The notes beneath the pieces were generated by a model, which was not told the origin of the DNA, searched no databases, and saw only the letters and a program-made list of their open reading frames with translations. From positions 229,273 through 293,272 of the IMG/VR virus record IMGVR_UViG_2974794945_000001: a DNA stretch of 64,000 bases; one strand, written 5' to 3'. Position numbers and translations under genes: made by a program. Shown here piece after piece: positions 8,003 to 62,865 of the stretch (positions are counted from its first letter, which is position 1; the number at the start of each line of letters is the position of its first letter). This DNA is from a virus (lineage: Duplodnaviria > Heunggongvirae > Uroviricota > Caudoviricetes).

Positions 8003-8749
8003 ATGCAACAAGTTCAAACAGATACCAACATGTGCCGCGTTATGATGAATGCAATGATCCAATGGATGATTGATACCAACATGGCTCAACGTATTCACGT
8101 AGTAACTGACGCAACCATGTTTGACGTGGGTATCTTGAAAAACAATGTAAACGGTTTGTATCAAATCGTACTGAACATTGCCGCATCGGCTGTTCGTAAT
8201 TTCTCATACAACGAACATACCTTCAGTTTTAACTGCTCCAATAATGGTGTTGACGTTCCTCTGAATGTCCCATATGAAGCAGTGTTGGGTTTCCTGATTC
8301 CTACCGCTGAAGGTTACACTTCTTTCTTCCCTATTCCAAACATGGAACGGGAATTGCTTGCTCTTCAAAAGACGCAAAACATGTTGCAAGAACTGGATCA
8401 ATTGGATCTGGGTGATGATGCTCCGTCAATGGCGCAGTTGAATGAACTCATGCGTGGTGTAGGGGTTAATGAACCGGCCAAACCAGTTGAGTCTTCCCCA
8501 TACGCGGTACATGGTCTTAACACAAATAGCGGTGAAGACGACACTAACACCCACGCTAATTCTTTGCCCACCAATGTTGAACTCATGCGTCGTAAACCAT
8601 TCACTGAACGTCCGGTGGCAAAAGTTGAAAAAGAAGCCCCACGACCATTGTTGGATTTTGGTCCAGTTGGCGGTGTAGTGTTTCAATCTAAACGTCCACG
8701 TCGTAAAGACGGTCCGAACCTGACCCTTATCCAAGGCGGAAAGAAATGA
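8003..8749 (+). CDS. hypothetical protein (248 aa)
   Basis: ORF after promoter box. Confidence 0.6.
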   Translation: MQQVQTDTNMCRVMMNAMIQWMIDTNMAQRIHVVTDATMFDVGILKNNVNGLYQIVLNIAASAVRNFSYNEHTFSFNCSNNGVDVPLNVPYEAVLGFLIPTAEGYTSFFPIPNMERELLALQKTQNMLQELDQLDLGDDAPSMAQLNELMRGVGVNEPAKPVESSPYAVHGLNTNSGEDDTNTHANSLPTNVELMRRKPFTERPVAKVEKEAPRPLLDFGPVGGVVFQSKRPRRKDGPNLTLIQGGKK

Positions 8750-9468
8750 ATTTGTGCGAACTACGTGCACACGTCATGCGGCGTGATTCTACACGCATGG
8801 CGGCAATCTTCAATGAACTAAAAGAAGATTCACAGTTTAAACAATTTGATATTTACGAGATGAATGACTTTTTGTTTCGTGAACTGGTATGGGCACCCGA
8901 AGAAGTGTCGGTTGATTCCAGAGAACTATATCAAATCAACATCCGAACTATCCCCATGGTTCGTTACGGCAATGGTAATCTGTGTATCCTTCCTGAAGAT
9001 GCACAAACATTCTGGCCAAGTCTGAATGACATTACTAACCCCCATACACCTATTCATGACATGGTTCATGCTGCATTGGTCAACCATGTTACAGGTTGGG
9101 ACCTGCGCATCGATGCGCCAGCCATGCGAATGCCGGTTCCTTTCACCTACGATCAACTGCGTCAGAATTTTGATGGCATTGTTGTAGGTGCGGAAAAAGT
9201 CATGTATTTGGATACCGAACTGAAAGTAGCCAAACTGACCAAGCACTTAACTATTACTGTGGTTTTGTTGATTACACCAAACGTGCTGTACGCATTGGGA
9301 AATCAGAAATACGGCGGAGAACGTACTGGTTTCTATACTTGCGACAATTCACTAAAAACAGAAGTGGAAGATAGCGAACTACCATTCGATCAGAATGAAA
9401 GTTTCTATGCGCACCTTACCAAAAACAGTTTTGATGCAACTGTAATGTTGCTACCGGGGCTTGAGTAA
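8746..9468 (+). CDS. hypothetical protein (240 aa)
   Basis: ORF; ATGA overlap. Confidence 0.6.
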   Translation: MNLCELRAHVMRRDSTRMAAIFNELKEDSQFKQFDIYEMNDFLFRELVWAPEEVSVDSRELYQINIRTIPMVRYGNGNLCILPEDAQTFWPSLNDITNPHTPIHDMVHAALVNHVTGWDLRIDAPAMRMPVPFTYDQLRQNFDGIVVGAEKVMYLDTELKVAKLTKHLTITVVLLITPNVLYALGNQKYGGERTGFYTCDNSLKTEVEDSELPFDQNESFYAHLTKNSFDATVMLLPGLE

Positions 9469-9471
9469 AAC

Positions 9472-10836
9472 ATGACTTTTCAAGATGTGTTGGGCTTTTA
9501 TCATGAAACGCTTAACTTGTTGTCTCATGGGGATTCAACCGTAAAAGGTTTCCTTGTGTTAGGTATCATGGGTGCACTGGGCTGGATTGGTCGTACATGG
9601 CCAGCTATGTTCATTGCATTCATTCGACGTAACATCATTGCGTCTATGACATTCACTCGTGCTGGGTCCTATTCAATGGACCTACAAAACTACGCAGAAT
9701 TCATGCGTTGGTTCAGTGAATCTAAATGGGCAAAGTATGATCGCAATCGTCGAGTAACATTTGACCGCGATAATCCTTATTTTGGACCAGGAGCAGGTTT
9801 TCACTGGTTCATCCATAATGGCCGCTACTTCTGGTTTCATGTGGTGCGTTTGAATTCCTCGGGTACAGATATCGAGAAAGAAGAATTCACCCTTTATACC
9901 TTCGGTCGTGATACTGCTCCGCTGGAAGCAATTGTAGAAGAGTTCCGTATTAAACCATGCAAAAGTTCTATACGTATCTTTGCACCTAATGATGGTGATT
10001 GGAAACGTCAAGGCAAATTGCGTTTGGATGCGGATGAAACTCTCATCATTGACCCGGACGTGGAACAAGAGTTCTTTGGTTCACTGGACTGGTACATTAA
10101 CAATGAGGCATGGTATCGTAAACGTGGTCGTGCTTACAAACACACGGTCATCCTGCACGGCCCACCTGGTACCGGTAAAACGTCTCTGATCAAGCGTGCA
10201 GCGCGTAAGTATAAACGTGACTTGCATTTCTTGAATTTGTCAACACACGGTCGTTCTCTGGCAGAACTGGTAGCTAAATTGCAACCGGGTGACATTCTCT
10301 GCATTGAAGACTTTGATGATGTGCGTTCTTTGCATCGTCGAGTAGAAACCAAAACGGTTGGTGTAACCGATGGTGATGATAGCAAAAGCCCTGGTGCTTT
10401 GCTGATGGATTGTGACATTGCACTGAGCACGTTCTTGAACGTATTGCAAGGTGTTGTGGAACTTGATGACATCATCATTATCATGACTACTAACCACCTG
10501 GAAAAGATTGACCCAGCTGTTTACCGTCGTTCTCGCGTAGACAAATTGATCGAAGTCCTGCCTCTTAAAGATGCAGAGATTAAACGCTACATCGATCAGA
10601 TGTATGATAATCCTACTTACGATCGTAATGTAATGTATCCAGATGTACCGGCTTCTACTTTGTCCGGTATATTCCAGGAACACCCAGACGATCATCTGGC
10701 TTTTATTAATAAGCTAGATTCCTTGGATGATGCGTACATCGCTAACAACTACGCATTACAACCAGAACCTAAACGGCCACCAGTGATTAAAAAGGAACCT
10801 GCTCCTGCATTGGAGGCTGTTGCTCTATCGGAATAG
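9472..10836 (+). CDS. membrane-anchored AAA+ ATPase, Bcs1-like
   Basis: N-terminal TM segment GFLVLGIMGALGWIG. Walker A HGPPGTGKTS. Bcs1-type Walker B ILCIEDFDD (E-D order). Sensor-1 IIMTTN. Arg finger region PAVYRRSRVD. Confidence 0.8.
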   Translation: MTFQDVLGFYHETLNLLSHGDSTVKGFLVLGIMGALGWIGRTWPAMFIAFIRRNIIASMTFTRAGSYSMDLQNYAEFMRWFSESKWAKYDRNRRVTFDRDNPYFGPGAGFHWFIHNGRYFWFHVVRLNSSGTDIEKEEFTLYTFGRDTAPLEAIVEEFRIKPCKSSIRIFAPNDGDWKRQGKLRLDADETLIIDPDVEQEFFGSLDWYINNEAWYRKRGRAYKHTVILHGPPGTGKTSLIKRAARKYKRDLHFLNLSTHGRSLAELVAKLQPGDILCIEDFDDVRSLHRRVETKTVGVTDGDDSKSPGALLMDCDIALSTFLNVLQGVVELDDIIIIMTTNHLEKIDPAVYRRSRVDKLIEVLPLKDAEIKRYIDQMYDNPTYDRNVMYPDVPASTLSGIFQEHPDDHLAFINKLDSLDDAYIANNYALQPEPKRPPVIKKEPAPALEAVALSE

Positions 10837-10841
10837 AATAC

Positions 10842-11183
10842 ATGGAACAGCTCAAACAAAAAGAATTCGACGTCTACCCAGATGAGATGACCTATCACAA
10901 AGATCGATTCCTGCACCCTAGCCGGAAATGTGAACTGGTCCGTTTTGTTGGTGCATTCCATTCGGATCATGTGCTTACAACCGAAGTCGAAGTTATTTGT
11001 CGTGGGAATGAACCGGGCAAGGTAGCACGGTTCTTGGTTCGTTACGGTGATCAAGAAGCTGATTTGATCATGGATTTGGAAACTTGCCGTTACTCTGCAT
11101 CTGTTAACATCAAAACTAAACTAGTCGATGTGATCCTTGTATTCCGCGCAGAATATCGGGAGGCACCAAAGGAAGCAGTATGA
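10842..11183 (+). CDS. hypothetical protein (113 aa)
   Basis: ORF. Confidence 0.5.
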   Translation: MEQLKQKEFDVYPDEMTYHKDRFLHPSRKCELVRFVGAFHSDHVLTTEVEVICRGNEPGKVARFLVRYGDQEADLIMDLETCRYSASVNIKTKLVDVILVFRAEYREAPKEAV

Positions 11184-12124
11184 TTAAAATCGAAGCTACA
11201 ATACCAACAGGTTATGGCAGTACATCAACTCGTTCGGAAGTAAAGATGGGTAAGATGCCTGGTGGTGAACTTCACCCCACAATCCCACCACACCTTGCCT
11301 GCTATCCCGATTACAAACTAATCGCAGATACACGTAGTGCTGAAGACATCATGGCGATCTTGTTGACTGTTGATGCCCTGCGGCGACAATGTGCTACCAA
11401 GAATCCCAGAGTCTCGTTGGAAATTGGTTACGTTCCTTACGCCCGGCAGGATCGGGTTTGTAATCCAGGGGAATCATTGAGCATTGCTGTTTTTGCTGGA
11501 TTGATTAACTCGTTGAATCTTGACGAAGTAATCATTGTTGATCCACACAGTGATGTTACACCTGCATTGATTAACAACGTTACAATTGTTACTCAGACCG
11601 ATGTGTTGAAACAAACACTGATCCGTGAGCATTGTGCTATTTATTATCGGGATGTAGCCATTGATCCAAAAGAATGGATTCTGGTTGCTCCTGATGCGGG
11701 TGCGGTTAAAAAGACCGAAGCTCTGGTAAAAGAGTTTGGTTTTAAAGGGATTGTTTATGCAAGTAAATTGCGTGAACTTTCTACGGGCAAAATTGTTAAG
11801 ACCTCGTTGGACCGTGTTGTCTACGATGGCACCACTCAACCACATGAATCATTGGCTGACCAGAAAGTGTTGATTGTTGATGACATTTGTGATGGTGGTC
11901 GTACATTCCTGGAATTGGCTAAAGTCATCCAGCCTTACGAACCCAAGCAACTGGATCTCTTTGTCACCCACGGGATTTTCTCTCAGGGTCAAAAAGAACT
12001 TTGTAAACATTTCAACCGCGTAATGTCGTCAAACACATATCGCATGGACGCCATCACTGATTTTGATAATCTTGAAATCAATGATCTCCTGGCACTTACC
12101 GAAATTCGTTTTCCCTACCTGTAA
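11180..12124 (+). CDS. ribose-phosphate pyrophosphokinase family protein (Prs-like; candidate ADP-ribose pyrophosphokinase, Adps)
   Basis: DALRRQCATK..IGYVPYARQDR matches Prs N-domain. PRPP-binding loop VLIVDDICDGGRT. 314 aa. Confidence 0.8.
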   Translation: MIKIEATIPTGYGSTSTRSEVKMGKMPGGELHPTIPPHLACYPDYKLIADTRSAEDIMAILLTVDALRRQCATKNPRVSLEIGYVPYARQDRVCNPGESLSIAVFAGLINSLNLDEVIIVDPHSDVTPALINNVTIVTQTDVLKQTLIREHCAIYYRDVAIDPKEWILVAPDAGAVKKTEALVKEFGFKGIVYASKLRELSTGKIVKTSLDRVVYDGTTQPHESLADQKVLIVDDICDGGRTFLELAKVIQPYEPKQLDLFVTHGIFSQGQKELCKHFNRVMSSNTYRMDAITDFDNLEINDLLALTEIRFPYL

Positions 12125-12136
12125 ATAGGAGCTTCA

Positions 12137-13966
12137 ATGAACGCACTCAATGCAGCAACAGCAACCGATTTTTACAAACCTGGTCACGGTCCATTGTACC
12201 CAGCGGGTACTACCCGTAAGTACTCGAACTTCACCCCACGTTCGGCAAAGAACTTTATTCGTTCTAAAAGCTGCTCATCGTTCTACGACAACAAAGTCGT
12301 AAACTTTGGTCTGTACGGCAGCTGGCAAGAACTGGTTGCTTTGTGGGATCGCACGTTCTTCCAGGTTTCCAAAGAGAAAGCCGTCAAAGCCATCAAGCGT
12401 CGTTTTGATAATGCTTGCGGCCCAGACGTTATCTCGGTTGCCCAAATTGCTGCGCTGCATGATGTAGGCTTCCTGCCTGTCACCGTGCTGTCCATCGAAG
12501 AAGGTAATCGTGTTAATGTTGGTATCCCACTGTGGGTTATCTATAACTCGGAAGAATACCCAGAGCACTACTGGCTGGTTAACTACCTGGAAACCGTAAC
12601 CAGTTCTTACAACTGGCAATCCATCACCAATGCCACCATTGCTTACGAATATCGTCGAGTAATGGAACACTGGGCTGAAAAGACTTGCGATAACAATCTG
12701 CACGTCAAGATCCAGGGTCATGATTTCTCGTTCCGTGGGATGCCTGGTCCAGAAGCTGCCGCTCGTTCAAACTCTGGTCACTTGGTTTCGTTCATTGGTA
12801 CTGACACTATCCCAGCAATCGACTACGTGGAAGAATATTACCACGCTGATAGCGATAAAGAAATTCTGGGTGTATCGGTTACTGCAACAGAGCACGCCGT
12901 GGCAACCGCCAACATCCTGACCATGTTCAAGCACCGCTTCGATGCTGTATGGGATGCTAACCACGGGGACATGGACATTGTTGGTCCATTGCTGGATAAA
13001 CTCAAGCTTGAGTGTGAGCGTGATTACATCCGTCAAATCATCACCGAAAAAGTAAACAAGGGCATTATCTCCCTGGTTTGCGATTCGTTCGATTTCTGGG
13101 GCGTCATTGCAGAAGTACTTCCATCACTGCGTACTGAAATTGAAGCTCGGATCAAGAATGAAATTGGTCTGGCTAAAGTTGTAGTGCGTCCTGATTCCGG
13201 TGATCCTGTTAAAGTCATCACTGGTTTTAAACTGGTTGAGTACAACACTGCAAAAGAATTCGATGATGCATTGTATAACCTCGGTTGGGAAGCAGTCAAC
13301 GGCGAAGCTGTCCGGGTAGGTGACAAGTATTACGAACTGCGTAACCACGATGCTCCAAATGCATTCCAGGCTCAGTCAACTTACGAAGACTTCCTGGGTC
13401 GTGAAATGTCTCGCGCAGAAGCTATCGGTGCCATTGATAGCCTCTACGAATCGTTTGGTGGACATGTAAACGGAAAGGGCTACAAAGTCCTGAATGAATA
13501 CATTGGCTTGATCTACGGTGATTCTATTACTGTAGAACGTGCTGAACAAATCTTTGAGCGCCTGGAAGAAAAAGGTTACGCTTCTTCTAACGTTGTTCTG
13601 GGTATTGGTTCGTTCACTTATCAATTCAACACTCGTGATACTTTTGGCATGGCTATGAAAGCCACCGCGTGTGAAGTTAACGCCGAACTGATTGAACTGT
13701 ACAAAGATCCAAAAACTGCTGCTTCCAAGAAATCTGCTAAAGGTTTCCTGCGCGTAGTGCGTGATGCTGCTGGTAACTATACACTGGAACAAGAAGTAGA
13801 AATGGACTGGAAAGATCTGTTCTACGGTTCGGGTGAATTGAAACCACTGTGGCACAACGGTAAGTTCCAGCGCGCTGAGTTCTTCCGTGATGCCCGTGAT
13901 CGTTTGGACCGTACATTTCTGCCTGCAGATACTGCTGCGGTAAATGATGGTTTTGAAGTAGCCTAA
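12137..13966 (+). CDS. nadV: nicotinamide phosphoribosyltransferase family protein (NadV/NAMPT-like; candidate Namat), with about 100-aa extra length
   Basis: NAMPT-family length and motifs (GTDTIPAIDY, GIGSFTYQ). Immediately downstream of the Prs-like gene. Confidence 0.75.
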   Translation: MNALNAATATDFYKPGHGPLYPAGTTRKYSNFTPRSAKNFIRSKSCSSFYDNKVVNFGLYGSWQELVALWDRTFFQVSKEKAVKAIKRRFDNACGPDVISVAQIAALHDVGFLPVTVLSIEEGNRVNVGIPLWVIYNSEEYPEHYWLVNYLETVTSSYNWQSITNATIAYEYRRVMEHWAEKTCDNNLHVKIQGHDFSFRGMPGPEAAARSNSGHLVSFIGTDTIPAIDYVEEYYHADSDKEILGVSVTATEHAVATANILTMFKHRFDAVWDANHGDMDIVGPLLDKLKLECERDYIRQIITEKVNKGIISLVCDSFDFWGVIAEVLPSLRTEIEARIKNEIGLAKVVVRPDSGDPVKVITGFKLVEYNTAKEFDDALYNLGWEAVNGEAVRVGDKYYELRNHDAPNAFQAQSTYEDFLGREMSRAEAIGAIDSLYESFGGHVNGKGYKVLNEYIGLIYGDSITVERAEQIFERLEEKGYASSNVVLGIGSFTYQFNTRDTFGMAMKATACEVNAELIELYKDPKTAASKKSAKGFLRVVRDAAGNYTLEQEVEMDWKDLFYGSGELKPLWHNGKFQRAEFFRDARDRLDRTFLPADTAAVNDGFEVA

Positions 13967-17855: not shown

Positions 17856-19244
17856 TTGATTGCGGTGAGATTGCCGCTTTCAATATCCTACGAGGTCGTT
17901 ACAATGTCTGAAGCAGAAGTTGTACAAAAAGAAATCAAAGCAGGTTTTGGTGTAGTAGAAAAAGATCGTAAACTTGCGCGCATCGTTATCATTGACGATG
18001 TTGTTCCACACCCTAATGCTGAACGCTTGGAACTTGCTGTAATTGGTGGTTGGCAACTCTGTGTCAAATTGGGCGAATACAAGAAAGGTGATCGTGCCGT
18101 TTATTGCGAGATCGATTCCCTGCTACCATTGTCCAACGTAGAACTCTTTGGTTTCCTGGAAGAACGCCGTTCTGATAACCGTCGGGTTGATGGTGTTAAC
18201 TTTCACCGGCTGAAGACTATCAAACTGCGTAAAGAAATTTCACAAGGTCTGTTGGTTCCAGTGCCAGCTAAGTTTAAAGATTCTCCGGTTGATACTAACC
18301 TGACTCTAGAACTGGGTATCTTGAAATACGAACCACGTGCACCAATGGAGCCATCGAACAAAGAAGCTCGCGGTTCTGACTGGTACTCTCGTTTGATTCG
18401 TAAGATCATTGGTAACCTGGATGGTTCACTGATTCCTTGGCCAGCTCAACTGACTAAGTCTGATCAGGACCGAGTACAGAACAAAACTGTTGCCTTCACC
18501 CTGGCTAAAGAAGCCGGTGAAGTATTTGAAGTTACCTACAAGCTTGATGGTAGCTCGATGACTGTGTTCTGCATCAACGATAAAGGTGTCCGTACTGGTG
18601 TGTGTTCTCGTAATTACGAGCTAGGTCTGGGTGAAGGTAATTGGTCGTTCTCTGAACAGCTGCGTCATTGGGTTGGTGCTTTCCTCATCCGTAACCGTAA
18701 AGTAGTTAGCTTGAAGAAAGTTCCTTTGGAAGAAGGTGGTTTCAAACGTAAACTACATTGGACTGGTATTCACATTCCACAGTGGTTGAAAGGTAGCATT
18801 GCTACTGAGAACAACTTCACTCGTTATGTGAAAGAACATGAAGTTACCAAGGCGCTGCGTGAATACCAAGCGCGTACTGGTGAATTCATTACTGTTCAAG
18901 GTGAATTGATTGGTCCGGACATTCAGTCTAACTTTGAAGGTGTAGACAAACACGAATACCACGTGTTCTCTGTGTACCGTAATGGTAACGAAGAAGTCTT
19001 GCCTGAAGAAGCTGAAAAGATTGTTAAAGAACTGGGTCTTACTTACGTTCCAATCTTTGATCGTGCGTTTGTAATCAAACCAGAACAAGGTGTTAAAGAA
19101 ATCCTGGAATTGGCTGAAGGTCAACGTGCTTTCAATCCAAAGAAAGGTACTTACCGTGAAGGTCTGGTATTCAAGTCAAAATCTCGACTGATGTCCTTCA
19201 AAGCCATCAGCAATAGCTACCTTATCAAAAAAGCAGACGAATAA
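17856..19244 (+). CDS. ATP-dependent RNA ligase (covalent nucleotidyltransferase; Rnl-type with N-terminal OB-like domain)
   Basis: Motif I TYKLDGSSMTV (KxDG), motif IV REGLVFK (EGxV), motif V KAISNSYLIKK. N-terminal roughly 110 aa looks like an OB/beta-barrel module as in Rnl5/NgrRnl-type ligases. Confidence 0.6.
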   Translation: MIAVRLPLSISYEVVTMSEAEVVQKEIKAGFGVVEKDRKLARIVIIDDVVPHPNAERLELAVIGGWQLCVKLGEYKKGDRAVYCEIDSLLPLSNVELFGFLEERRSDNRRVDGVNFHRLKTIKLRKEISQGLLVPVPAKFKDSPVDTNLTLELGILKYEPRAPMEPSNKEARGSDWYSRLIRKIIGNLDGSLIPWPAQLTKSDQDRVQNKTVAFTLAKEAGEVFEVTYKLDGSSMTVFCINDKGVRTGVCSRNYELGLGEGNWSFSEQLRHWVGAFLIRNRKVVSLKKVPLEEGGFKRKLHWTGIHIPQWLKGSIATENNFTRYVKEHEVTKALREYQARTGEFITVQGELIGPDIQSNFEGVDKHEYHVFSVYRNGNEEVLPEEAEKIVKELGLTYVPIFDRAFVIKPEQGVKEILELAEGQRAFNPKKGTYREGLVFKSKSRLMSFKAISNSYLIKKADE

Positions 19245-51465: not shown

Positions 51466-51648
51466 ATGGAACTCGAAAACACCGAAATGTACACCCTGGA
51501 AATCAAAGACCTGGCGGCAGACGAGTCTGAAGTTCAGACCGTAACCAAAGCAGGTTGGGAACTGATGCAAGAATTCAACTTCCTGCAAATCGGTCAAGTT
51601 GTACGTGACTGGAAAATGTTCATTGTTACACCCCTAATCATGGGCTAA
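51466..51648 (+). CDS. small acidic protein (60 aa)
   Basis: ORF; gagg RBS. Confidence 0.5.
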   Translation: MELENTEMYTLEIKDLAADESEVQTVTKAGWELMQEFNFLQIGQVVRDWKMFIVTPLIMG

Positions 51649-51650
51649 CG

Positions 51651-52208
51651 ATGATTTGCGTTTATACTCTTTATCTCCCCTTTACTGGGGTTTACTACAT
51701 TGGTTATACGGATAATTTTAACCGTCGGCGCAGACAGCACATTAATACGCTGCGCCGCGGTGTTCATGACAATAGTTTTCTACAGTATGCTTTTAATGTA
51801 GACAACCAAGTTATTGTAATTCCGGAACCTGTAGAGACAATTGAAAAAGCAATTGCTTTAGAAAAACAAAAGATTCTTGACCATAAAGACAATCCATTGT
51901 TAGCTAATATTATTTACGCTAAAGCACGTAGTGCCGAATGGTGTGAGGCTATGTCACAAAGTCGTATTGGGACAAAAGCCAGTCAAGAAACAAAAGACAA
52001 AATGTCAGCGACTAGGACAGGAGTCAAACAATCAGCTGAATGGGTTGAGAATAGGGCAAAGCATAGACGCCTATCGGTAACAATTGCCGGTACAGTGTAT
52101 AAAAGTGTAACGGATGCTGTAAAAGCATTAGGTATACCGTGCAACACTTTACTGCGGCGAGTGAGAAATCCTAATCTCAAATTTAAAGACTATGTTTTCA
52201 CTTCGTAA
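51651..52208 (+). CDS. GIY-YIG homing endonuclease (free-standing, Seg-like)
   Basis: N-terminal ICVYTLYLPFTGVYYIGYTDNFNRRRRQH (GIY..YIG..R..H). C-terminal NUMOD-like repeats (SRIGTKASQETKDKMS, TRTGVKQSAEW) and HTH-like tail. Confidence 0.75.
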   Translation: MICVYTLYLPFTGVYYIGYTDNFNRRRRQHINTLRRGVHDNSFLQYAFNVDNQVIVIPEPVETIEKAIALEKQKILDHKDNPLLANIIYAKARSAEWCEAMSQSRIGTKASQETKDKMSATRTGVKQSAEWVENRAKHRRLSVTIAGTVYKSVTDAVKALGIPCNTLLRRVRNPNLKFKDYVFTS

Positions 52209-55605: not shown

Positions 55606-56868
55606 TTAACCTTTCACACAGAGGAATTGTTTTAGGGTGTGCACGATTTCAACCAGTTCAGATTGTGCCGCCATTACGTCATCAATGTTCTTGTATGCCT
55701 TAGGGGTTTCATCCAGAACACTTGCATCTTTACGACATTCTACACCAGCTGTATCACGGATATGATCTTCCAGTGTAAAAGTCTTTTCTGCTTGTGTACG
55801 GGACATTACTCGACCTGCACCATGTGAACATGAACAGAACGATTCTCGGTTTCCTTTACCGCGGACAATGAATGACTTAGCACCCATAGAACCTGGAATG
55901 ATCCCCAGTGTTCCTTCACTTGCGTTGACTGCACCTTTACGTGTTACAATAACATTCTCACCAAAGTGGCGTTCTTGTGATACGTAGTTGTGGTGGCAGT
56001 TAATTGCCTCTAGATCCGAATCAATTGGCAGGCCCAGTGTTTTGTGGATGGCATCCAAAGCAGCGTGCATCATCACGGAACGATTTAGTGCAGCAAAGCG
56101 TTGTGCCCAAGATACGGCTTCAACGTAGTCATCGTAGTAACGTGAACCTTCCGGCAGATAAGAAAGATCTTTATCCGGAAGGTGGATAAAGAAACGCCCC
56201 ATTTCTTCTTTGGCTTTGCTAATGAAGTAAGTACCAATAGCGTTACCAATACCACGCGAACCCGAGTGTAGCATAATCCATACACGATCTGTTTCATCAA
56301 GACACAGTTCAATGAAGTGGTTACCCGTACCCAGTGTCCCTACATGGTTCCAAGCACGCTCGGATGCTTTCTTCAATTTAGGGTGGCGTTCAACAATGCT
56401 ATCCAATTGCTTCCGTAGTTTTGCAGCTTCTTCACGAACAGCTACGGTTGGGTGATTGAAGATATTAACGGTACCAAATGCACCACGATCATTCTTACCA
56501 CCATTGTCAGTACGACCATGTGGCACACATGCTTCAATGGCTGCACGAAGATGTCCCAGAGAGTCTGGAAGCGCGTCTGAAGAGAATCTCAGACGTTGTG
56601 CTGCCATTCCGCATCCAATATCAACACCTACCGCAGAAGGGATGATAGCGCCTTTGGTAGCAATAACAGAACCAATGGTTGCACCTTTACCCACATGAAC
56701 GTCTGGCATCACTGCTACGTGGGAATAAATGAATGGCAATGCTGCAATGTTTTTCAATTGCTTTACTGCATCGGGTTCTACTGGTACACCTACGGTCCAG
56801 CCTTTAATTGGCTTAGCTCCGTCAATAGGCTCACCACCTAGAATTTCAAATGTTTTACTCTGTTTCAT
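55606..56868 (-). CDS. rtcB: RtcB family RNA 3'-phosphate/2',3'-cyclic phosphate ligase
   Basis: RtcB motifs: LGTGNHFIEL, metal/GTP-binding residues, CSCSHGAGRVMSR; 420 aa. Confidence 0.85.
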   Translation of the reverse strand: MKQSKTFEILGGEPIDGAKPIKGWTVGVPVEPDAVKQLKNIAALPFIYSHVAVMPDVHVGKGATIGSVIATKGAIIPSAVGVDIGCGMAAQRLRFSSDALPDSLGHLRAAIEACVPHGRTDNGGKNDRGAFGTVNIFNHPTVAVREEAAKLRKQLDSIVERHPKLKKASERAWNHVGTLGTGNHFIELCLDETDRVWIMLHSGSRGIGNAIGTYFISKAKEEMGRFFIHLPDKDLSYLPEGSRYYDDYVEAVSWAQRFAALNRSVMMHAALDAIHKTLGLPIDSDLEAINCHHNYVSQERHFGENVIVTRKGAVNASEGTLGIIPGSMGAKSFIVRGKGNRESFCSCSHGAGRVMSRTQAEKTFTLEDHIRDTAGVECRKDASVLDETPKAYKNIDDVMAAQSELVEIVHTLKQFLCVKG

Positions 56869-56896
56869 ATAAATCTCTCACGGATGGAATTAGAGT

Positions 56897-57562
56897 TTAT
56901 TGATTAACGAATGTTTCACAATGCCCTTTTGGATCAAGCACAATATTACCTGTCCAAGTAAAACCTTTTTGTTCTTCTGTTTCAACGTTTGCTACTGCGC
57001 TGATTACAATTTGCCTTACTTCGCCATTTTTAATACTAGCAAAGTCTTTAGGAAACAAATGATCCCGAACTGCATTCAATACAACGTCGCCTTGAGTGGT
57101 TGTTGTAGGGACAGTAACAAATGCACTTAGTGCACGATCAACTTCGTTGTCTAGCAGACGCCACTGGACGTACGGGTGCAAGTGTCTGATGCTATCCCCG
57201 TCCATGTAATCCAAATGGGCTGAATGTTTATCGATCAAACGGTCTTGAAAAAGATCTGCTGTCTTGGTATACAGTTCAGGGTGGTCACGGAACAGCGAGT
57301 TTGTACAGTAAGTATTTTCTACAGTAGAAACGGGCTCAAGTTTTTCTAATGTTTCCCGGTAACACTCTTCCAACAGCATGAAGTAATTCTTACGCACAGG
57401 TCCCCAAATGTCCTCACGAATGATTTCGCGCAGGGCTGCAAATTCAGTAAGTTCCTTAAGGTTAACGCTACGGTTTGCACAGTGTAGTTCGTGCAAGCGT
57501 TCTTTAAATCCTTCTTGTAGCAAAGGAGCGAAGGGCTCCATAAATTTATCAAGTGCTGACAT
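56897..57562 (-). CDS. hypothetical protein (221 aa)
   Basis: ORF immediately upstream of rtcB. Confidence 0.55.
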   Translation of the reverse strand: MSALDKFMEPFAPLLQEGFKERLHELHCANRSVNLKELTEFAALREIIREDIWGPVRKNYFMLLEECYRETLEKLEPVSTVENTYCTNSLFRDHPELYTKTADLFQDRLIDKHSAHLDYMDGDSIRHLHPYVQWRLLDNEVDRALSAFVTVPTTTTQGDVVLNAVRDHLFPKDFASIKNGEVRQIVISAVANVETEEQKGFTWTGNIVLDPKGHCETFVNQ

Positions 57563-57949
57563 TGTAGATACCTATTGGGTTTGGTTATATAAACTGAAGC
57601 GGTAAGTATTATTAAACGGCATAAGAGCAGACCCGAAGGTCCACTCCTATTAAGGACTGTATAGTTATTAGCTGGCCAGCTTACCCCCGTAGTGTTCAGA
57701 GGTTAATAGCTATTACAGCACCGCGAGTCTTTTACATATCCAATGGTCCTACCACATGCAGCAAGAGGTGGCTTGGACGGACCTTGGATAAAAAGAAACT
57801 TACGATTCGGATCAGACGTAGTTGTCACACTAAGTAAGTCCATTCGGGTCGAAGCTTGACTGGCTTCGTTATGAGGTCTTCCCTCTATTTAAGAGCCGAA
57901 ACCGCGCAACCGGCAATGTTCTTCACATTATTACGTCTGTAGTATTTCT
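57563..57949 (-). other. ORF-free 0.39-kb spacer, possibly structured RNA or leader
   Basis: No ORF of 60 aa or more on either strand, between the radical SAM gene and the 221-aa gene; several local hairpins. Confidence 0.3.
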
Positions 57950-58831
57950 TTATTTTAAGAACGTACCACATGATGCTTTTACGTCTGTACCTACGCGAGG
58001 AATAACTTTGACTCGTGCCTTAGGCAAGCGTCTACGAATATAACCTGCCAGGTAATTAATCTGTCCTTCTAAGCTTTCTTGTGAGCTATGACCATCGGGT
58101 GGATTGTACCGAACAATGTTCCAATTGACATCCAGCTTATACGTATCAAGTTGATCACAGATCTTTGCTACGTCTGCAAGATCATCATTTTCATTACGAA
58201 TGAATGCATAATGAATCTTTGGTTTTTTACCGGTGGCTTGTTGCCAGGACATTAGCTTAGCAAACGCCGCACTCGGATTAAGTGCTTTAGGTATCCAGCG
58301 TTTACGAAACTCGGGTTTTAAGGAATACACCGAGTAATAAATTTCTGGATAAAGATCTGGATGTGTGAAGATTTCAGTTAATCCACGGTTCATCATTTCC
58401 TGTGGAAAAATGGTAGACACCAAAAACTTATATTCCAAACCGTAACGTGAAGCACGTTCCGCTAAACCATCCAAAATGATGTCGGCATTGTCTAGGAAGA
58501 TCTTGTTGGCTAAAGGTTCACCACGAGCCATGAAATTGAAATGTACTTTACGAGCCATTGTTTTAGTGGCGTAGTATTGTAGTACACGTTCAGCTTGATC
58601 CCAGTATTCTTCAATGGTTACATCACGTAGTTTGTTTTGTCCCGTAGCTGTTAAATGGCACATACGGCAGGCTTGATTACAGCCTGTCTGAGAAGACAAA
58701 TAAACAATGAAGTAATCATCGCTCCGACGTACATACCGTGCCTCTAACATCCCTGGGTGATCTTCAAAGCGGTGTTCAAAGTTAACGGACTGATCAAGTT
58801 GTGATATGTGTTGTTTAAAGATAAGTTCCAT
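57950..58831 (-). CDS. radical SAM enzyme, RlmN/Cfr-like (short form, 293 aa)
   Basis: YLSSQTGCNQACRMCHL matches RlmN/Cfr SSQVGCxxxCxFC (CX3CX2C). C-terminal conserved Cys in IPRVGTDVKASCGTF matches RlmN ..DIDAACGQL. Confidence 0.6.
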   Translation of the reverse strand: MELIFKQHISQLDQSVNFEHRFEDHPGMLEARYVRRSDDYFIVYLSSQTGCNQACRMCHLTATGQNKLRDVTIEEYWDQAERVLQYYATKTMARKVHFNFMARGEPLANKIFLDNADIILDGLAERASRYGLEYKFLVSTIFPQEMMNRGLTEIFTHPDLYPEIYYSVYSLKPEFRKRWIPKALNPSAAFAKLMSWQQATGKKPKIHYAFIRNENDDLADVAKICDQLDTYKLDVNWNIVRYNPPDGHSSQESLEGQINYLAGYIRRRLPKARVKVIPRVGTDVKASCGTFLK

Positions 58832-59088
58832 TAATCCACCTGTATTTCAATGAAGACTTCGGTACGACCAACCCATATTGAACCACGGGTGGCATATTGC
58901 GCATTGTAAGTCGCTTTGTTATCTACCCAAACTTGGTATACATCCTGACCACAATCTCGAATAAAATTCGAAACTTTATTAATAGCATAACGAACTTGCT
59001 TATCATTGAACCAGGGAAATGATAAGCGAATCTGTTTTTCCATGTTATCGTGGTACGACATTGTTATACTCCGCAATTTGGAAATCAC
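58831..59088 (-). CDS. hypothetical protein (85 aa)
   Basis: ORF. Confidence 0.5.
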   Translation of the reverse strand: MISKLRSITMSYHDNMEKQIRLSFPWFNDKQVRYAINKVSNFIRDCGQDVYQVWVDNKATYNAQYATRGSIWVGRTEVFIEIQVD

Positions 59089-59380
59089 CTAGGTTAACAA
59101 CAAACCCTCCAATTGTACTAATCACAACCGGTCTGTGTTTACGATAAAGCCCGTGTTGCTCACGCCAGTAATCTTGTAGATGTGCATCTACAAAAGCTTC
59201 TGTATGTCCTGGGGTAAATATTTCACCCCATTGCGGTTCTAACGCCTTCTCTATTTGGTATTGGTAACTCTTAATAACGTGGTGTGGTGGATCAGTCTCT
59301 GGACCAAAATAGGTCTCACGTTTATGTGCAATCTTTGCGTGGATCATGTCTTTAAATGCAGCATTAGTTCTTTCATTCAT
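59045..59380 (-). CDS. hypothetical protein (111 aa)
   Basis: ORF. Confidence 0.5.
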   Translation of the reverse strand: MNERTNAAFKDMIHAKIAHKRETYFGPETDPPHHVIKSYQYQIEKALEPQWGEIFTPGHTEAFVDAHLQDYWREQHGLYRKHRPVVISTIGGFVVNLGDFQIAEYNNVVPR

Positions 59381-59402
59381 TGTAAATTCCTATTTTTAGT
59401 AT

Positions 59403-59915
59403 TTAACCAATCCGAATAACTAGTACATCTTCAGCAAAGTTATTAGCAACCCATTGCATGAAGTTAGCATCAGTAACACCCATAAAGTTTAGAGTGTATG
59501 ATGCATCATCAATAAGAATGTATTTAATGCGTTCATACAATTCTTTTTCTGGTTCTGCTCCATGCTTAACTTTATCTCTTAACGTACATGTTGACAAATG
59601 GGGAACAATAGTGGTGGTGCTATTTTTCTTATTGTATTTGGCAGTAAGTGACCGTTGAGTAAAGTCATCTTTTACAATAAGCAAGCATTCACCAAGTTGT
59701 TTCTTACTGATGAAATCAATAATGGTTTCTGTTTTACCTGATTGACGTCCAACAAAGAAACCGACTGTCCTTAGTTCACGAATAGTAGAGGGTAAGCCCA
59801 AACGCAAACTATCTTTGTTTTTGTAGTAGACCTCATTGGTCTTTTCAATTAGTGCATCAAGCATTGCCTGATAATCAATTTGAATTGCCGGTGTTTTAAT
59901 GTATTCGTTTTTCAT
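59403..59915 (-). CDS. small P-loop NTPase-like protein (170 aa)
   Basis: Walker A-like VGRQSGKTE; possible Walker B ILIDDA. Confidence 0.5.
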   Translation of the reverse strand: MKNEYIKTPAIQIDYQAMLDALIEKTNEVYYKNKDSLRLGLPSTIRELRTVGFFVGRQSGKTETIIDFISKKQLGECLLIVKDDFTQRSLTAKYNKKNSTTTIVPHLSTCTLRDKVKHGAEPEKELYERIKYILIDDASYTLNFMGVTDANFMQWVANNFAEDVLVIRIG

Positions 59916-59984
59916 GGGTATTCCAATAGTAGAGGTACTGCAATCGTAAAGACCATTCTTTACTTATACATTGTCGCACTGAGT

Positions 59985-60019
59985 ATTTTATGGCATAAAG
60001 CTTTCCCCTAGGGGAAAGC
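59985..60019 (-). terminator. palindromic hairpin gctttcccc-ta-ggggaaagc + A/T tail (terminator after tRNA-Leu)
   Basis: Perfect 9-bp stem; on minus it is followed by tttatgcc. Confidence 0.5.
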
Positions 60020-60031
60020 ACTATACTTGTT

Positions 60032-60117
60032 TGGTGCGGACGAAGAGACTCGAACTCTCACGGGCTAAGCCCGCTGGAACCTAAATCCAGTGCGTCTACC
60101 AATTCCGCCACATCCGC
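60032..60117 (-). tRNA. tRNA-Leu (anticodon UAG), type II, CCA encoded
   Basis: Minus-strand sequence GCGGATGTGGCGGAATTGGTAGACGCACTGGATTTAGGTTCCAGCGGGCTTAGCCCGTGAGAGTTCGAGTCTCTTCGTCCGCACCA. 7-bp acceptor, anticodon stem CTGGA/TCCAG with loop TTTAGGT, long variable arm, T-loop TTCGAGT. Confidence 0.85.
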
Positions 60118-60154
60118 TTGTATATTATTACACTTGTGGTATTCTTTTACAGTA

Positions 60155-60877
60155 TTAGGTTATTTGAATTGACCACTCATTGTTTTCCCAACTGTCTTTT
60201 TGTTTTGTTATAAGAGCTTTATGAATTGTAGTGTAATTTATTTTGGTATATTTAGCAGCATCCATAAGTGTTTCAAATGTGTGAGCTTCGCCTGTAACTT
60301 TATTAGCCGCCATTGTAATAAACCATGTTCTCTTTTTACTAGATATCTTAGGCCATGGTTTTATTGACATGTGTCTGAAAGCGTAGTTGCAATAAGCGTA
60401 TTGTCCAGCCATGTTACCCCGTAAATGTTTGGCTAGGGTAGGTAATGGTACACCATATTTCTCTGCTGCTCGTCGAATAGATTTCTCTGTAAATATCTCA
60501 CCGCTATTAATGTTAAGAATTTGTATTTCTATTGGGATAGGGGTAAGCTTATTATCAACCGCATGAATAACATTACCTGATCCTGTTACCCATTCTAAGT
60601 TAGTTTTTGTATTGTTTGCTTTATTGCCGTCTTTATGATTAACTTCAAGTTGTTTAAATGGAATATGTTGTAAATGCATTGGTCGTTTAACATAGGTAAT
60701 TGCATATATGCGGTGTACTCGATACGCCCTATGTTTCATTCCAGGTGAGGTTAAAACAATATTCATGTATCCTGATTTTGTTTTATGTTGTTTAAGTATT
60801 TTGCATGTTCGGTAATTAAACAATACCCCTTCGGGACTTACTCCGATCCTATTGTCATTTGGAAATGGTTTATACAT
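60155..60877 (-). CDS. HNH homing endonuclease
   Basis: HNH core AYRVHRIYAITYV...LEVNHKDGNKANNTKTNLEWVT; sits between two tRNA genes, as is typical of phage tRNA islands. Confidence 0.75.
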   Translation of the reverse strand: MYKPFPNDNRIGVSPEGVLFNYRTCKILKQHKTKSGYMNIVLTSPGMKHRAYRVHRIYAITYVKRPMHLQHIPFKQLEVNHKDGNKANNTKTNLEWVTGSGNVIHAVDNKLTPIPIEIQILNINSGEIFTEKSIRRAAEKYGVPLPTLAKHLRGNMAGQYAYCNYAFRHMSIKPWPKISSKKRTWFITMAANKVTGEAHTFETLMDAAKYTKINYTTIHKALITKQKDSWENNEWSIQIT

Positions 60878-60946
60878 TTTAAGTCCTGTCTACTATTACA
60901 CTATACAATAGGACATAAAACCAACCCTAAGGTTGGCTATGTTTTT

Positions 60947-61032
60947 TGGTGCCTGAAGGGGGACTCGAACCCACCAATCCCGAAGGCGGGAGTGTTTAAG
61001 ACTCCTATCTATACCAATTCGATCATTCAGGC
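60947..61032 (-). tRNA. tRNA-Leu (anticodon UAA), type II, CCA encoded
   Basis: Minus-strand GCCTGAATGATCGAATTGGTATAGATAGGAGTCTTAAACACTCCCGCCTTCGGGATTGGTGGGTTCGAGTCCCCCTTCAGGCACCA. Anticodon stem GGAGT/ACTCC with loop CTTAAAC. Confidence 0.8.
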
Positions 61033-61039
61033 GTATACT

Positions 61040-61850
61040 TTCTAGAATGGTGTGTCTACCGATTTCACCATCCGGGCTAATTTGATCCAGCATCCAAAAC
61101 GTACAGGTTTGGTTAACAACAAACACAAGGTCGTTGGTAGATCGGTCGCTGGAAGAACCTTTTCATCCTAGTACATAGCCACAACGAACTGCGGTAAACC
61201 GCTAGAGTTGTAACCGGCGAGCTAGGTCTATCTACTTACTCGCCTACAGCGCTTCAGGACGATGGAGGGCAAGTAATTGAGAATCGAGGGTAACCAATTA
61301 GACGCTTTGCTAGCTCCGGCTTTCACGGAGTGCCGACTAACCCATTACCATGACCAGTAGGCAGACTGGGTAGCTGGGACACAAGGTCCAGTTCGGGAAT
61401 ATGGGGTTGCGTGTAAGAAATCAGCCAGGGATCTGAAACATGTTTTCTTACACCAACCAGTGACGGACATCTGATCCGTTGCAGCCGAGTCTGCCGCCTC
61501 TTCGGTATGCGCCTTAGTAACCGGGACTATCCAGTCTTTGGGGTATCATGGGTCGGGCTTTGAGCTTCCCTGTTAACTGACTATTCTAGTCTTTTGTCAG
61601 TCGTCGTAGGGGTTCATTAAAATCTCACACCATGCAGCTCGGTGCCCTAGTCTGAGGATTAATCAGGCATCAGTGTAAGACTTGCCTATCCCTTCCGGGC
61701 TAGGGCTTCACCGTTCCAATGGGCTCGGTGTATGAGATTGATAGTAACGATTTAACGCTCCTTGGCAGCTTTCCCAATTCACGCAACCTTTACCGAACGT
61801 TAGAGGAAACCTCCTTACCCAACATCCGAACTATCTATCTCATGCTCTTG
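61040..61850 (-). other. 0.8-kb ORF-free region (candidate structured RNA, intron-like element or long UTR)
   Basis: No ORF of 60 aa or more in six frames between tRNA-Leu(UAA) and the 224-aa gene. Contains a possible GACTA/TAGTC long-range pair (about 61340 and 61640). Confidence 0.3.
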
Positions 61851-61851
61851 A

Positions 61852-62526
61852 CTACTCGTGAGTAGTTTCTAAACTGTGTATTACGCAAACTGAACCATCG
61901 TCTAACGCGGTCTTGGCGTTGTAATCAATTTGATTATAGACACCACCATGAAATTGGAAGATTCGATCACGCCAAGTACTATCCAGCTTTAAAGCAGGAC
62001 AATCAGATTTACGACCTTCGCACAGAGCGTTGATTGTTACTGAACCTGCTTTAGTTACGTGGAGAGTAATCTTGAACGGCACACCTAGTGGTACGTTTTC
62101 CAAAACAGTAAAGTTATTGATTACTGGATCGGTAAAGCTACTACGGAAACCAGCCGTAAGTTTTCCTTTATTCCAGAAAACTTTCAATGGTGGAGTAGTA
62201 GCATTTTTAACGTGTACTTGAGCAACTACCACTTTCTTAGCTGAGTTAACTCGAACTAATGTCATCTCTTGTCGAGACCAGTGATGTGCGGCACTATCCA
62301 TAGGCCAGTAGTTTGCTTCTTTCCATTCACACCGCGTACGATGTGTACTTTTACTAGATGCACCTAATGTTGGTGCTGAGAGTTGTATCGAACCGTCTTC
62401 TAATTGACTGATCACATCCGCACACTTCACCAAGGCCTCTGAACCAATTAATTCCCAAGCAACAGGATTATTGATACTGACCGGTAAGGGAGTGGCTATT
62501 AAGTAATGATTAATGTCAACTAACAT
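61852..62526 (-). CDS. hypothetical protein (224 aa)
   Basis: ORF downstream of the tRNA cluster on the minus strand. Confidence 0.55.
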   Translation of the reverse strand: MLVDINHYLIATPLPVSINNPVAWELIGSEALVKCADVISQLEDGSIQLSAPTLGASSKSTHRTRCEWKEANYWPMDSAAHHWSRQEMTLVRVNSAKKVVVAQVHVKNATTPPLKVFWNKGKLTAGFRSSFTDPVINNFTVLENVPLGVPFKITLHVTKAGSVTINALCEGRKSDCPALKLDSTWRDRIFQFHGGVYNQIDYNAKTALDDGSVCVIHSLETTHE

Positions 62527-62547
62527 TTCTTTACTCTCTTTTAATAG

Positions 62548-62690
62548 GTGGAGCGTCCTAGTCTAACTAGACGACAGCTAATGCTGATTGGATTTGCACC
62601 AATGTACTCCGGGTACGAGAGTGTCCTTGGCCACTAGACGAACTACCCTAATGGATAGTAACGGGGTCGAACCGTTGTTTCTCTCTATCA
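62548..62690 (-). pseudogene. tRNA-like remnants (canonical T-arm AACGG-TTCGACC-CCGTT; internal about 20-nt direct repeat), no complete cloverleaf found by eye
   Basis: Minus strand directly 3' of tRNA-Ser carries a perfect T-arm plus ACTATCCA tail. CATTAG..TCGTCTAGT occurs twice, 72 nt apart. Confidence 0.3.
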
Positions 62691-62691
62691 C

Positions 62692-62783
62692 TGGAGGAAG
62701 AATAGGGATTTGAACCCTAGGGCAGTCCTTAGACCACCAGAGCTTTAGCAAAGCCCCTCGTTAAACCACTCCGACATTCTTCC
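62692..62783 (-). tRNA. tRNA-Ser (anticodon GCU), type II, CCA encoded
   Basis: Minus-strand GGAAGAATGTCGGAGTGGTTTAACGAGGGGCTTTGCTAAAGCTCTGGTGGTCTAAGGACTGCCCTAGGGTTCAAATCCCTATTCTTCCTCCA. Anticodon loop TTGCTAA. Confidence 0.8.
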
Positions 62784-62789
62784 TGTAAT

Positions 62790-62865
62790 TGGCGGGCTAT
62801 GATGGACTCGAACCACCAACACGCGGCTTTGGAGGCCGCTGTTCTGCCAATTGAACTAATAACCC
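62790..62865 (-). tRNA. tRNA-Trp (anticodon CCA), CCA end encoded
   Basis: Minus-strand GGGTTATTAGTTCAATTGGCAGAACAGCGGCCTCCAAAGCCGCGTGTTGGTGGTTCGAGTCCATCATAGCCCGCCA. Anticodon stem GCGGC/GCCGC with loop CTCCAAA. Confidence 0.8.

Follow-up and report, generated by a model that had tools for sequence, protein, structure and literature searches.

The GOLLD and ROOL RNAs of phages, which often occur near tRNA islands (PMC12286853), are 600–900 nucleotides (nt) long, contain many helices together with pseudoknots or kissing contacts, and join a better-conserved part to a variable part; neither a protein partner nor a function is on record for them (Weinberg 2009/2017; Kretsch 2025, PMC12286853). 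Restoration of tRNAs cut by a host anticodon nuclease is exemplified by phage T4, whose ligase Rnl1 works with Pnkp against PrrC. In the Rtc RNA-repair system of E. coli and Salmonella, RtcB is accompanied by RtcA and RtcR, and cleaved tRNAs and rRNA are the proposed substrates (PMC7790460, PMC9304027). Toxins of the AbiEii/MenT family modify the acceptor (3') ends of tRNAs and mediate abortive infection (PMC7450476, PMC10435456); in P. syringae, they have been listed as a common toxin family (PMC8790059). Here, we describe a stretch of 64,000 nt (the window) from the genome of Pseudomonas phage Psa21 and, within it, a tRNA island that carries a large structured non-coding RNA, a short RlmN-like radical S-adenosylmethionine (SAM) enzyme (gp398) and an RtcB RNA ligase (gp396).

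Genomic context of the tRNA island

The window is identical (100%) to positions 229273–293272 of the Psa21 record (MK552327/NC_062581). Psa21 is a nucleus-forming, phiKZ-like jumbo phage of 305,260 bp with P. syringae pv. actinidiae as host, and encodes homologues of the nuclear shell and of PhuZ as well as eight annotated tRNAs. With the region from 55.6 to 62.9 kb, the window covers the near end of this phage's accessory tRNA island. The principal features of the region, with positions in the window, are:

55606–56868, minus strand: RtcB RNA ligase (gp396), 420 amino acids (Pfam PF01139, E=4e-129; PHROG 1075, E=8.5e-149)
57950–58831, minus strand: short RlmN-like Class A radical-SAM enzyme (gp398), 293 amino acids (PHROG 27142, E=6.5e-144)
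60032–60117, minus strand: tRNA-Leu(UAG) (ARAGORN; Rfam 54.6 bits), highly conserved among relatives
60947–61032, minus strand: tRNA-Leu(UAA) (ARAGORN; Rfam 43.1 bits), with an allele that differs strongly between relatives
61087–61830, minus strand: large structured non-coding RNA, ~745 nt, supported by covarying structure
62692–62783, minus strand: tRNA-Ser(GCU) (ARAGORN; Rfam 47.6 bits)
62790–62865, minus strand: tRNA-Trp(CCA) (ARAGORN; Rfam 63 bits)

The original prediction, which was made from the sequence alone, described this region as a minus-strand island for tRNA repair and modification of translation. Every feature that it listed is present, but it missed the largest non-coding feature (61087–61830), a PL7 lyase gene, a truncated tRNA-Leu and the tRNAs past the end of the window. 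The RtcB gene, the radical-SAM gene, the HNH endonuclease gene and the four tRNAs had all been annotated earlier in GenBank/RefSeq, and the combination of tRNAs with RNA ligases for tRNA repair has already been proposed generally for jumbo phages (PMC7824862, PMC13282480). The flagged gene set, and the RtcB/tRNA/ligase finding as first written, were thus known or hypothesised before. The best-supported view of the island is that of a mosaic of loosely linked parts, each touching translation RNAs, and not of one machine.

A large structured RNA beside tRNA-Leu(UAA)

The 819 nt between the PL7 lyase gene and tRNA-Leu(UAA) contain stop codons in all six frames, which rules out a protein-coding region. 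Two blocks within them share 76–84% DNA identity with relatives whose proteins are only ~65–75% identical. Ten full-length copies of 596–938 nt were aligned, and RNAalifold yielded a structure of 106 pairs and 22 covarying helices, with three long-range helices enclosing domains. Standard pairs were found in 95.6% of the cells for the predicted structure, compared to 29–41% in slid registers, and pairs changed on both sides numbered 32 compared to 4–11. None of 500 shuffles reached the pairing values of the RNA. Because many G-U pairs are invariant, the RNA is assigned to the same strand as the tRNAs.

The RNA consists of a conserved core (61508–61651) and a variable insertion (~61283–61462). 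A loop-loop kissing contact, which the alignment model did not contain, has its partners within 61582–61595 and 61523–61532; all five of its pairs covary and are 100% paired, occurring in the four compensatory versions GACUA/UAGUC, GAUCA/UGAUC, AGUCG/CGACU and CAUCG/CGAUG. A covariance model of the 147-position core recovered all copies, 14 in total, including the diverged ones of L005 and L010 (61–65 bits; handles with L denote related loci), RVTF4 (59.6 bits) and Viktualia (22.5 bits). The D6 RNA measures 596 nt, and the core in Viktualia ~300 nt. Twelve of the 14 copies end immediately 5' of tRNA-Leu(UAA), on the same strand and at a distance of ~10–55 nt in Psa21, and in D6, L006, L013 and RVTF4 the RNA begins right after tRNA-Ser(GCU). 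Phabio retains only the 3' half and 201phi2-1 only a short leader. In the relative L008 (8212–8322), the 5' hairpin domain (H1-H2) is tandemly duplicated, as seen from a second nhmmer match (E=1e-9).

No copy matches a family in Rfam 15: for the Psa21 RNA there was no match even at E<=10, and for five relatives none at the gathering threshold. On this basis, and with no tmRNA reported by ARAGORN, GOLLD, ROOL, group I and group II introns, RNase P, tmRNA and HEARO were ruled out as identities of the RNA. Two motif scans of viral contigs in IMG/VR gave no copies beyond the Psa21-related clade, one metagenome scan added few close relatives, and no description of the RNA was found in the literature searched. 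The Psa21 RNA resembles GOLLD and ROOL in being phage-encoded, in its place in a tRNA island, in its size and helical complexity, and in the joining of a better-conserved to a variable part. In contrast to both, it is limited to a narrow clade of nucleus-forming Pseudomonas jumbo phages, and it matches neither covariance model in sequence or structure. Homo-oligomeric nanocages are a further mark of GOLLD and ROOL. As judged from alignment and predicted structure, the RNA is a new family that resembles GOLLD and ROOL in setting and complexity and is a member of neither. A third unrelated family of very large structured RNAs beside phage tRNA genes strengthens the case for a general tRNA-linked role. 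As it is present in culturable Pseudomonas phages (Psa21, D6, RVTF4), deletion, RNA sequencing and cryo-electron microscopy are feasible; antisense oligomers are effective in jumbo phages (PMC12571901).

HNH or GIY-YIG genes are frequent in the group I introns of phages, and the non-coding block could accordingly be read as a degenerate group I intron or mobile ribozyme tied to the HNH gene, which lies 200 nt downstream in Psa21 and D6. The R/S-like motifs 'CUCAGACUAGG' and 'GAUAGUCC' fit this reading, but 'GACUA' and 'UAGUC' pair as a kissing contact between two hairpins and not as a P7 helix, and most copies have no HNH gene nearby. Moreover, the upstream flank is no conserved exon, being tRNA-Ser in D6, L006, L013 and RVTF4 and the PL7 gene in Psa21, L004, L008 and L220. 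Together with the missing Rfam intron or ribozyme match, this leaves the intron reading with hardly any probability.

The radical-SAM enzyme and a toxin gene beside it in bacteria

GenBank and RefSeq label gp398 as 'ribosomal RNA large subunit methyltransferase N' and 'Fe-S-cluster redox domain-containing', and the original prediction called it RlmN/Cfr-like. The core fold agrees with this label. The AlphaFold2 model (predicted local distance difference test score 89.8) matched E. coli RlmN with a Foldseek template modelling (TM) score of 0.77 and Cfr with 0.62. The CX3CX2C cluster (C51/C55/C58) is invariant, the GEP SAM motif is conserved, and the invariant C288 ('ASCG') corresponds to the C-terminal methyl-carrier cysteine C355 of RlmN and aligns with 'AACGQ' of Cfr. 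The family is large (2086 matches), strongly conserved and ~290–310 residues in length.

Compared to RlmN and Cfr, however, gp398 is ~90 residues shorter and has no N-terminal RNA-binding domain, its alignment beginning at position 78 of the RlmN model. The position of the resolving cysteine (C118 in RlmN, C105 in Cfr), seven residues before the cluster, is occupied by Tyr44 in gp398 and by tyrosine in 22 of 22 aligned members. The NCBIfam scores of 55 bits for RlmN (cutoff 290) and 43–48 bits for Cfr (cutoffs 530–550) are far below the thresholds. Hence, gp398 has the RlmN fold, belongs to a distinct clade and is no true RlmN or Cfr. RlmN without C118 stays covalently trapped on its RNA substrate, a property that underlies the cross-linked structures 5hr6 and 5hr7. 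Since the resolving cysteine is a tyrosine and loss of C118 traps RlmN, the canonical two-cysteine cycle cannot run in gp398 as it does in RlmN. A clade that naturally lacks this residue presents a mechanistic puzzle for Class A radical-SAM chemistry.

Loci around radical-SAM homologues (58 viral, 71 genomic and 80 metagenomic, plus Logan/JGI contigs) were compared. A gene for an AbiEii-family nucleotidyltransferase toxin was found head-to-head with the radical-SAM gene, i.e. directly upstream on the opposite strand, in 56 of ~115 bacterial or metagenomic loci with enough upstream sequence. The toxin is a full-length AbiEii (Pfam PF08843, E=4.6e-25; PADLOC AbiEii, E=1e-63), and the intergenic gap is mostly 100–250 nt. 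The pairs occur in Planctomycetota, Myxococcota and others, with toxins diverging to 29–40% identity; one example among the loci L062–L219 is L078, with genes at 9007–9972 (minus strand) and 10001–10843 (plus strand). The proteins linked to AbiEii are the closest cellular relatives of the Psa21-type enzyme (50–57% identity), and most other viral homologues are only 39–47% identical to it.

These loci share a full-length AbiEii toxin with the AbiE/MenAT toxin-antitoxin systems but differ from them in the partner: neither an AbiEi/MenA antitoxin gene nor another conserved neighbour was found, and the upstream position is held by the divergently transcribed radical-SAM gene. PADLOC does not list the pairing, and the literature searched contained no mention of it. 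The head-to-head arrangement of AbiEii with a short RlmN-like gene may represent an uncatalogued variant of AbiE/MenAT systems. We infer that the cellular role of the radical-SAM enzyme is tied to the toxin. A profile built from the linked toxins gave no AbiEii in the phage loci, where the radical-SAM enzyme occurs alone; conceivably, this toxin-free copy could serve as an antidote or as a protective RNA modifier. The pairing is a new, testable lead, and hints at a so far undescribed partner or antidote of a widespread toxin family that modifies tRNAs and causes abortive infection.

It is improbable that gp398 acts as a true RlmN/Cfr methyltransferase, which would methylate A2503 of 23S rRNA or A37 of tRNAs, phage tRNAs included, and so tune translation. 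The GenBank name, the best NCBIfam and PDB sequence matches (all RlmN/Cfr), the best fold match, the conserved cluster, GEP motif and C355 equivalent, and the location beside tRNA genes agree with such a function. Against it stand the score of 55 against 290 bits, the tyrosine at the C118 position and the absent RNA-contacting N-terminal domain; in addition, the conserved bacterial neighbour is an AbiEii toxin and not a set of translation genes.

Among phages, the radical-SAM gene was found in 21 records, and the clade comprises 16 sequenced phages, all with genomes of 207–357 kb. A small open reading frame (ORF) is always coupled upstream of the gene in relatives; in Psa21, its stop codon overlaps the radical-SAM start codon:

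58831–59061, minus strand: gp399, small ORF (GenBank annotation)

A conserved small partner was ruled out, as the groups of these ORFs are mutually unrelated by BLAST.

RtcB and the distal RNA ligase

The proximity of RtcB to tRNAs on the same strand was borne out, with a full-length, intact RtcB located 3.2 kb from the tRNAs. It scored 432 bits against PF01139 (cutoff 27), covering profile positions 1–426 of 426. The motifs VDIGCG, GNHF, HSGSRG, HHN and SHGAGR, which include the metal-binding residues and the guanylylated histidine, align with the solved RtcBs of P. horikoshii and T. thermophilus (PDB 1uc2/4dwq, 2epg). The Psa21 protein is an intact member of the 3'-phosphate/5'-OH ligase family. 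It shares family and all catalytic motifs with the RtcBs of the E. coli and Salmonella Rtc system and of other phages. Unlike the Rtc system, it has no neighbouring RtcA, RtcR or archease, is embedded in a phage tRNA island, and its activity, the GTP/Mn2+-dependent joining of 3'-phosphate or 2',3'-cyclic-phosphate ends to 5'-OH ends, is a predicted one. RtcB is not unusual in phages, as homologues are present in 562 phage records. Beside the island, RtcB is kept at 82–90% identity in relatives, compared to ~65–75% for other proteins there. In the relative L220 (11748–13958), the RtcB gene encodes 736 instead of ~420 amino acids, a length that suggests an intein insertion. In NCBIfam, the Psa21 RtcB itself scores best with the 'intein-containing RtcB family' model, to which it aligns outside the intein part.

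Archaea and eukaryotes use RtcB as the ligase of tRNA splicing, and its synteny with the tRNA/large-RNA array in the Psa21 clade would also fit a use in the phage's own RNA processing, joining or circularising the large RNA or split tRNAs instead of repairing damage inflicted by the host. RNase P and RNase Z products carry 5'-phosphate and 3'-OH ends and are no substrates of RtcB. Neither ARAGORN nor Rfam revealed an intron-containing or split tRNA, and L005, L010, Phabio and Viktualia keep the large RNA or part of it without an adjacent RtcB. We regard own-RNA processing as very improbable.

The original prediction combined RtcB with a separate ATP-dependent RNA ligase at 17856–19244 as a second repair chemistry, and proposed that a small P-loop protein could be an accessory end-healing kinase:

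17904–19244, plus strand: distal ATP-dependent RNA ligase, Rnl5 (Naegleria/Deinococcus) type (PF21189 N-terminal OB domain, E=6.6e-24; PF09414, E=2.8e-18)
59403–59915, minus strand: gp401, 170 amino acids, standalone RecA-like domain with degenerate Walker A motif

The ligase gene is real, although its annotated start is at 17904. It matched NgrRnl (PDB 5cot, E=1e-40) with the KLDGSS motif aligned, and no Rnl1 entry was among its PDB or Pfam matches, only the Rnl5 type. A role as second tRNA-repair chemistry was not sustained: the enzyme is of the nick-sealing, NgrRnl-like type, lies 36 kb away on the other strand, and no kinase or phosphatase was found by Pfam in the 10 neighbouring proteins. 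The concept of a phage ligase that restores tRNAs cut by a host anticodon nuclease is shared with Rnl1 and Pnkp of T4, but the Psa21 ligase is of the Rnl5 type with an N-terminal OB domain, no Pnkp was found near it, and gp401 is no kinase. The motif 'GRQSGKT' is present in Psa21 gp401. In the 24-member family, however, the lysine position of the Walker A motif (GxxxxGK[ST]) reads K, S, G, A, L or I, and the protein is a lone RecA-like domain without a kinase-type P-loop fold. Alignment and fold together rule out gp401 as an end-healing kinase.

tRNAs, codon use and a probable homing scar

The four minus-strand tRNAs of the original prediction were confirmed by ARAGORN and by the Rfam covariance model, with scores of 43.1–63 bits (gathering threshold 29 bits). 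They represent four of the eight tRNAs of Psa21; according to GenBank, the cluster runs on past the end of the window with tRNAs for Asn, Pro, Asp and His and a second HNH gene. In the window, which has a G+C content of 42%, UUA (14%) and CUA (12%) make up 26% of Leu codons, CCA 42% of Pro codons, and AGU together with AGC 35% of Ser codons. The Leu(UAA), Leu(UAG), Pro(UGG) and Ser(GCU) tRNAs are explained by codon supply, and for the two Leu tRNAs codon supplementation is at least as good an explanation as counter-defence. The Trp, Asn, Asp and His tRNAs are not explained by codon choice, since each is a single isoacceptor by the genetic code.

Codon supply can be extended to the island as a whole. 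The tRNAs would then offset the codon mismatch between a phage of 42% G+C and a high-GC host, and the other genes would be unrelated accessories of a variable genome arm, without any counter-defence. We consider this possible but rather unlikely. The match of codon frequencies to the anticodons UAA, UAG, UGG and GCU supports it, as does the same codon-usage conclusion reached by the authors of phage D6. The genes for PL7, HNH, galactose oxidase, gp397 and gp399–401 come and go between the tRNAs among relatives, and the synteny is clade-limited. It is opposed by the four single-isoacceptor tRNAs, by the elevated conservation of RtcB beside the island, and by the bacterial partners of the radical-SAM enzyme, which are toxins of a tRNA-targeting family.

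Two further features accompany the tRNA-Leu genes:

60155–60877, minus strand: HNH homing-type endonuclease gene (gp403), between both tRNA-Leu genes (Pfam HNH_3, HTH_psq, NUMOD1; PHROG 59)
61033–61076, minus strand: truncated tRNA-Leu(UAA) pseudo-tRNA, 44 nt, 5' half up to the anticodon loop (read from the sequence)

The HNH endonuclease had been foreseen in the original prediction, and its HNH_3 plus HTH/NUMOD1 domains bear this out. The gene occupies the same place in D6 and is absent in L008 and L220, whose two Leu tRNAs adjoin each other. Immediately upstream of the complete tRNA-Leu(UAA), the 44-nt fragment represents a different allele, closest to that of Phabio (match in D-arm and anticodon stem). 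An equivalent remnant occurs in D6, and in Psa21 as in D6 the HNH gene follows just downstream; relatives that lack this gene show no remnant. The remnant is probably the scar of an allele replacement driven by the homing endonuclease, because it tracks the HNH gene and relatives carry widely differing tRNA-Leu(UAA) alleles. The HNH gene resembles the free-standing homing endonuclease genes of phage tRNA clusters, e.g. SegB of T4, in lying amid tRNA genes and in varying in presence and absence; a further point of likeness is that Psa21 has a truncated tRNA-Leu copy next to a complete allele that diverges from it. The Psa21 endonuclease differs from SegB in belonging to the HNH and not to the GIY-YIG family, and its homing is putative.

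The spacer that separates tRNA-Ser(GCU) from the PL7 gene contains a possible decayed tRNA (62587–62639, minus strand), which matches the Rfam tRNA model weakly and in part (13.5 bits, E=3.6, model positions 10–63). All relatives conserve an AT-rich box (...TAC-N6-GTGTAATAATATAC) just ahead of tRNA-Leu(UAG), and boxes like it stand before the HNH gene, the RNA of Phabio and the tRNA-Leu leader of 201phi2-1 (60120–60142 and 60888–60910, both minus strand; L012, ~7826–7853; L011, ~1597–1630). The box may be a promoter for a phage RNA polymerase. It was ruled out as a window-wide promoter motif, as three loose matches compared to 0.9 expected are no enrichment; sigma-70-like sites are not enriched in the window either.

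Gene order and interpretation of the island

The order tRNA cluster, small ORF, radical-SAM gene, one to four small ORFs, RtcB, gp395 and gp394 is repeated in D6, in RVTF4 and in about eight Psa21-like contigs from metagenomes. The large RNA has a fixed place in it, the sequence being tRNAs, large RNA, tRNA-Leu, small ORF, radical-SAM gene and RtcB. Phabio and 201phi2-1 have the radical-SAM gene without RtcB, in Viktualia both genes are 42 kb apart, and the more distant viral radical-SAM homologues adjoin UvsX/gp32-type replication genes. RtcB was absent from every bacterial radical-SAM locus. The linkage on one strand that underlay the original prediction of a tRNA-repair island is therefore real but confined to one Psa21-like clade. 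A widely conserved module of RtcB, radical-SAM gene and tRNAs was ruled out, the RtcB and radical-SAM genes being neighbours only in Psa21, D6, RVTF4 and relatives from metagenomes.

On balance, we slightly favour a mosaic tRNA island that serves tRNA supply and RNA resealing and additionally carries a toxin-linked enzyme and a large GOLLD/ROOL-like RNA. In such an island, the tRNAs and the large RNA would be transcribed together and the RNA freed by RNase P and RNase Z. The tRNAs would feed the AT-rich codons of the phage and act as stand-ins for damaged host tRNAs. RtcB would reseal 2',3'-cyclic-phosphate/5'-OH breaks that ribonuclease defences of the host leave in tRNA or rRNA; these defences could reach cytoplasmic RNA although the phage DNA is shielded. 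The radical-SAM enzyme may act on RNA or on the pathway of an AbiEii/MenT-type nucleotidyltransferase toxin, since its closest cellular relatives lie head-to-head with such toxins. The large RNA would join the GOLLD/ROOL RNAs of phage tRNA islands as a new analogue, and the HNH gene, the PL7 lyase gene and the lineage-specific ORFs would be mobile or hitchhiking genes. The counter-defence theme is plausible and has been put forward in general terms in reviews (PMC7824862, PMC13282480).

Several observations weigh against the mosaic reading. The linkage of RtcB, radical-SAM gene and tRNAs occurs in one narrow clade only, so that common descent could account for it without a joint function. Pfam revealed neither an end-healing enzyme nor RtcA or archease in the 64-kb window, the other 241 kb of the genome being unscreened, and RNA-repair genes were described as less common in nucleus-forming phages (Iyer et al., PMC7824862). 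The AbiEii/radical-SAM pair is divergent, forms no operon and is missing from about half of the bacterial loci. The stability of the large RNA is only modestly above that of shuffles (z=-2.0), and the RNA is confined to ~14 related phages.

A bolder version of the mosaic reading is tentative and, to our mind, doubtful. Here, the large RNA would found a third GOLLD/ROOL-like class, bound physically to the tRNA array of nucleus-forming jumbo phages, and would form a hub for tRNA protection or restoration together with RtcB and the radical-SAM enzyme, the latter enzyme being an AbiEii partner captured by the phage and acting as an anti-toxin.

Neighbouring genes and minor observations

The remaining genes of the region are:

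56897–57562, minus strand: gp397, lineage-specific ORF, 221 amino acids (no Pfam, PHROG, NCBIfam or PADLOC match)
59045–59380, minus strand: gp400, 111 amino acids (no Pfam or PHROG family match; homologue in L008 only)
61852–62526, minus strand: PL7 gene for a polysaccharide (alginate) lyase, an insertion in the tRNA island (Pfam PF08787, E=5.7e-35)

For gp397, tblastn gave no homologue in any related locus, the closest relatives included. The PL7 gene is found at the same position in L004, L008, L220 and L222 and is absent from D6, L006 and L013; the inside of a tRNA array is an odd place for a likely depolymerase. The intergenic junctions at 60921–60946, 59990–60031 and 57585–57625 (minus strand) share one layout, a GC-rich hairpin with 'TTTATG' and the next start codon behind it. 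The layout is repeated in relatives and resembles terminator/promoter or processing junctions characteristic of these phages. A second non-coding RNA in the gap 57563–57949 was ruled out, as only short junction motifs of this type are conserved there.

A GIY-YIG endonuclease (51639–52196, plus strand; Pfam E=6e-7) is encoded at the switch from plus to minus strand, just ahead of the RtcB block. Elsewhere in the window (8003–10836, plus strand), a protein with an SspB-like adaptor domain (PF04386, E=6e-10) is encoded two genes upstream of a BCS1/AAA+ ATPase, which carries the RefSeq label 'cell division protein FtsH'; the two may form a phage-encoded adaptor pair for proteolysis or unfolding. 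According to the RefSeq annotation, genes for a ribose-phosphate pyrophosphokinase and a nicotinamide phosphoribosyltransferase lie side by side at 11180–13966 (plus strand). Together they make up an NAD+ salvage pair; such pairs have been proposed to act against defences that deplete NAD.

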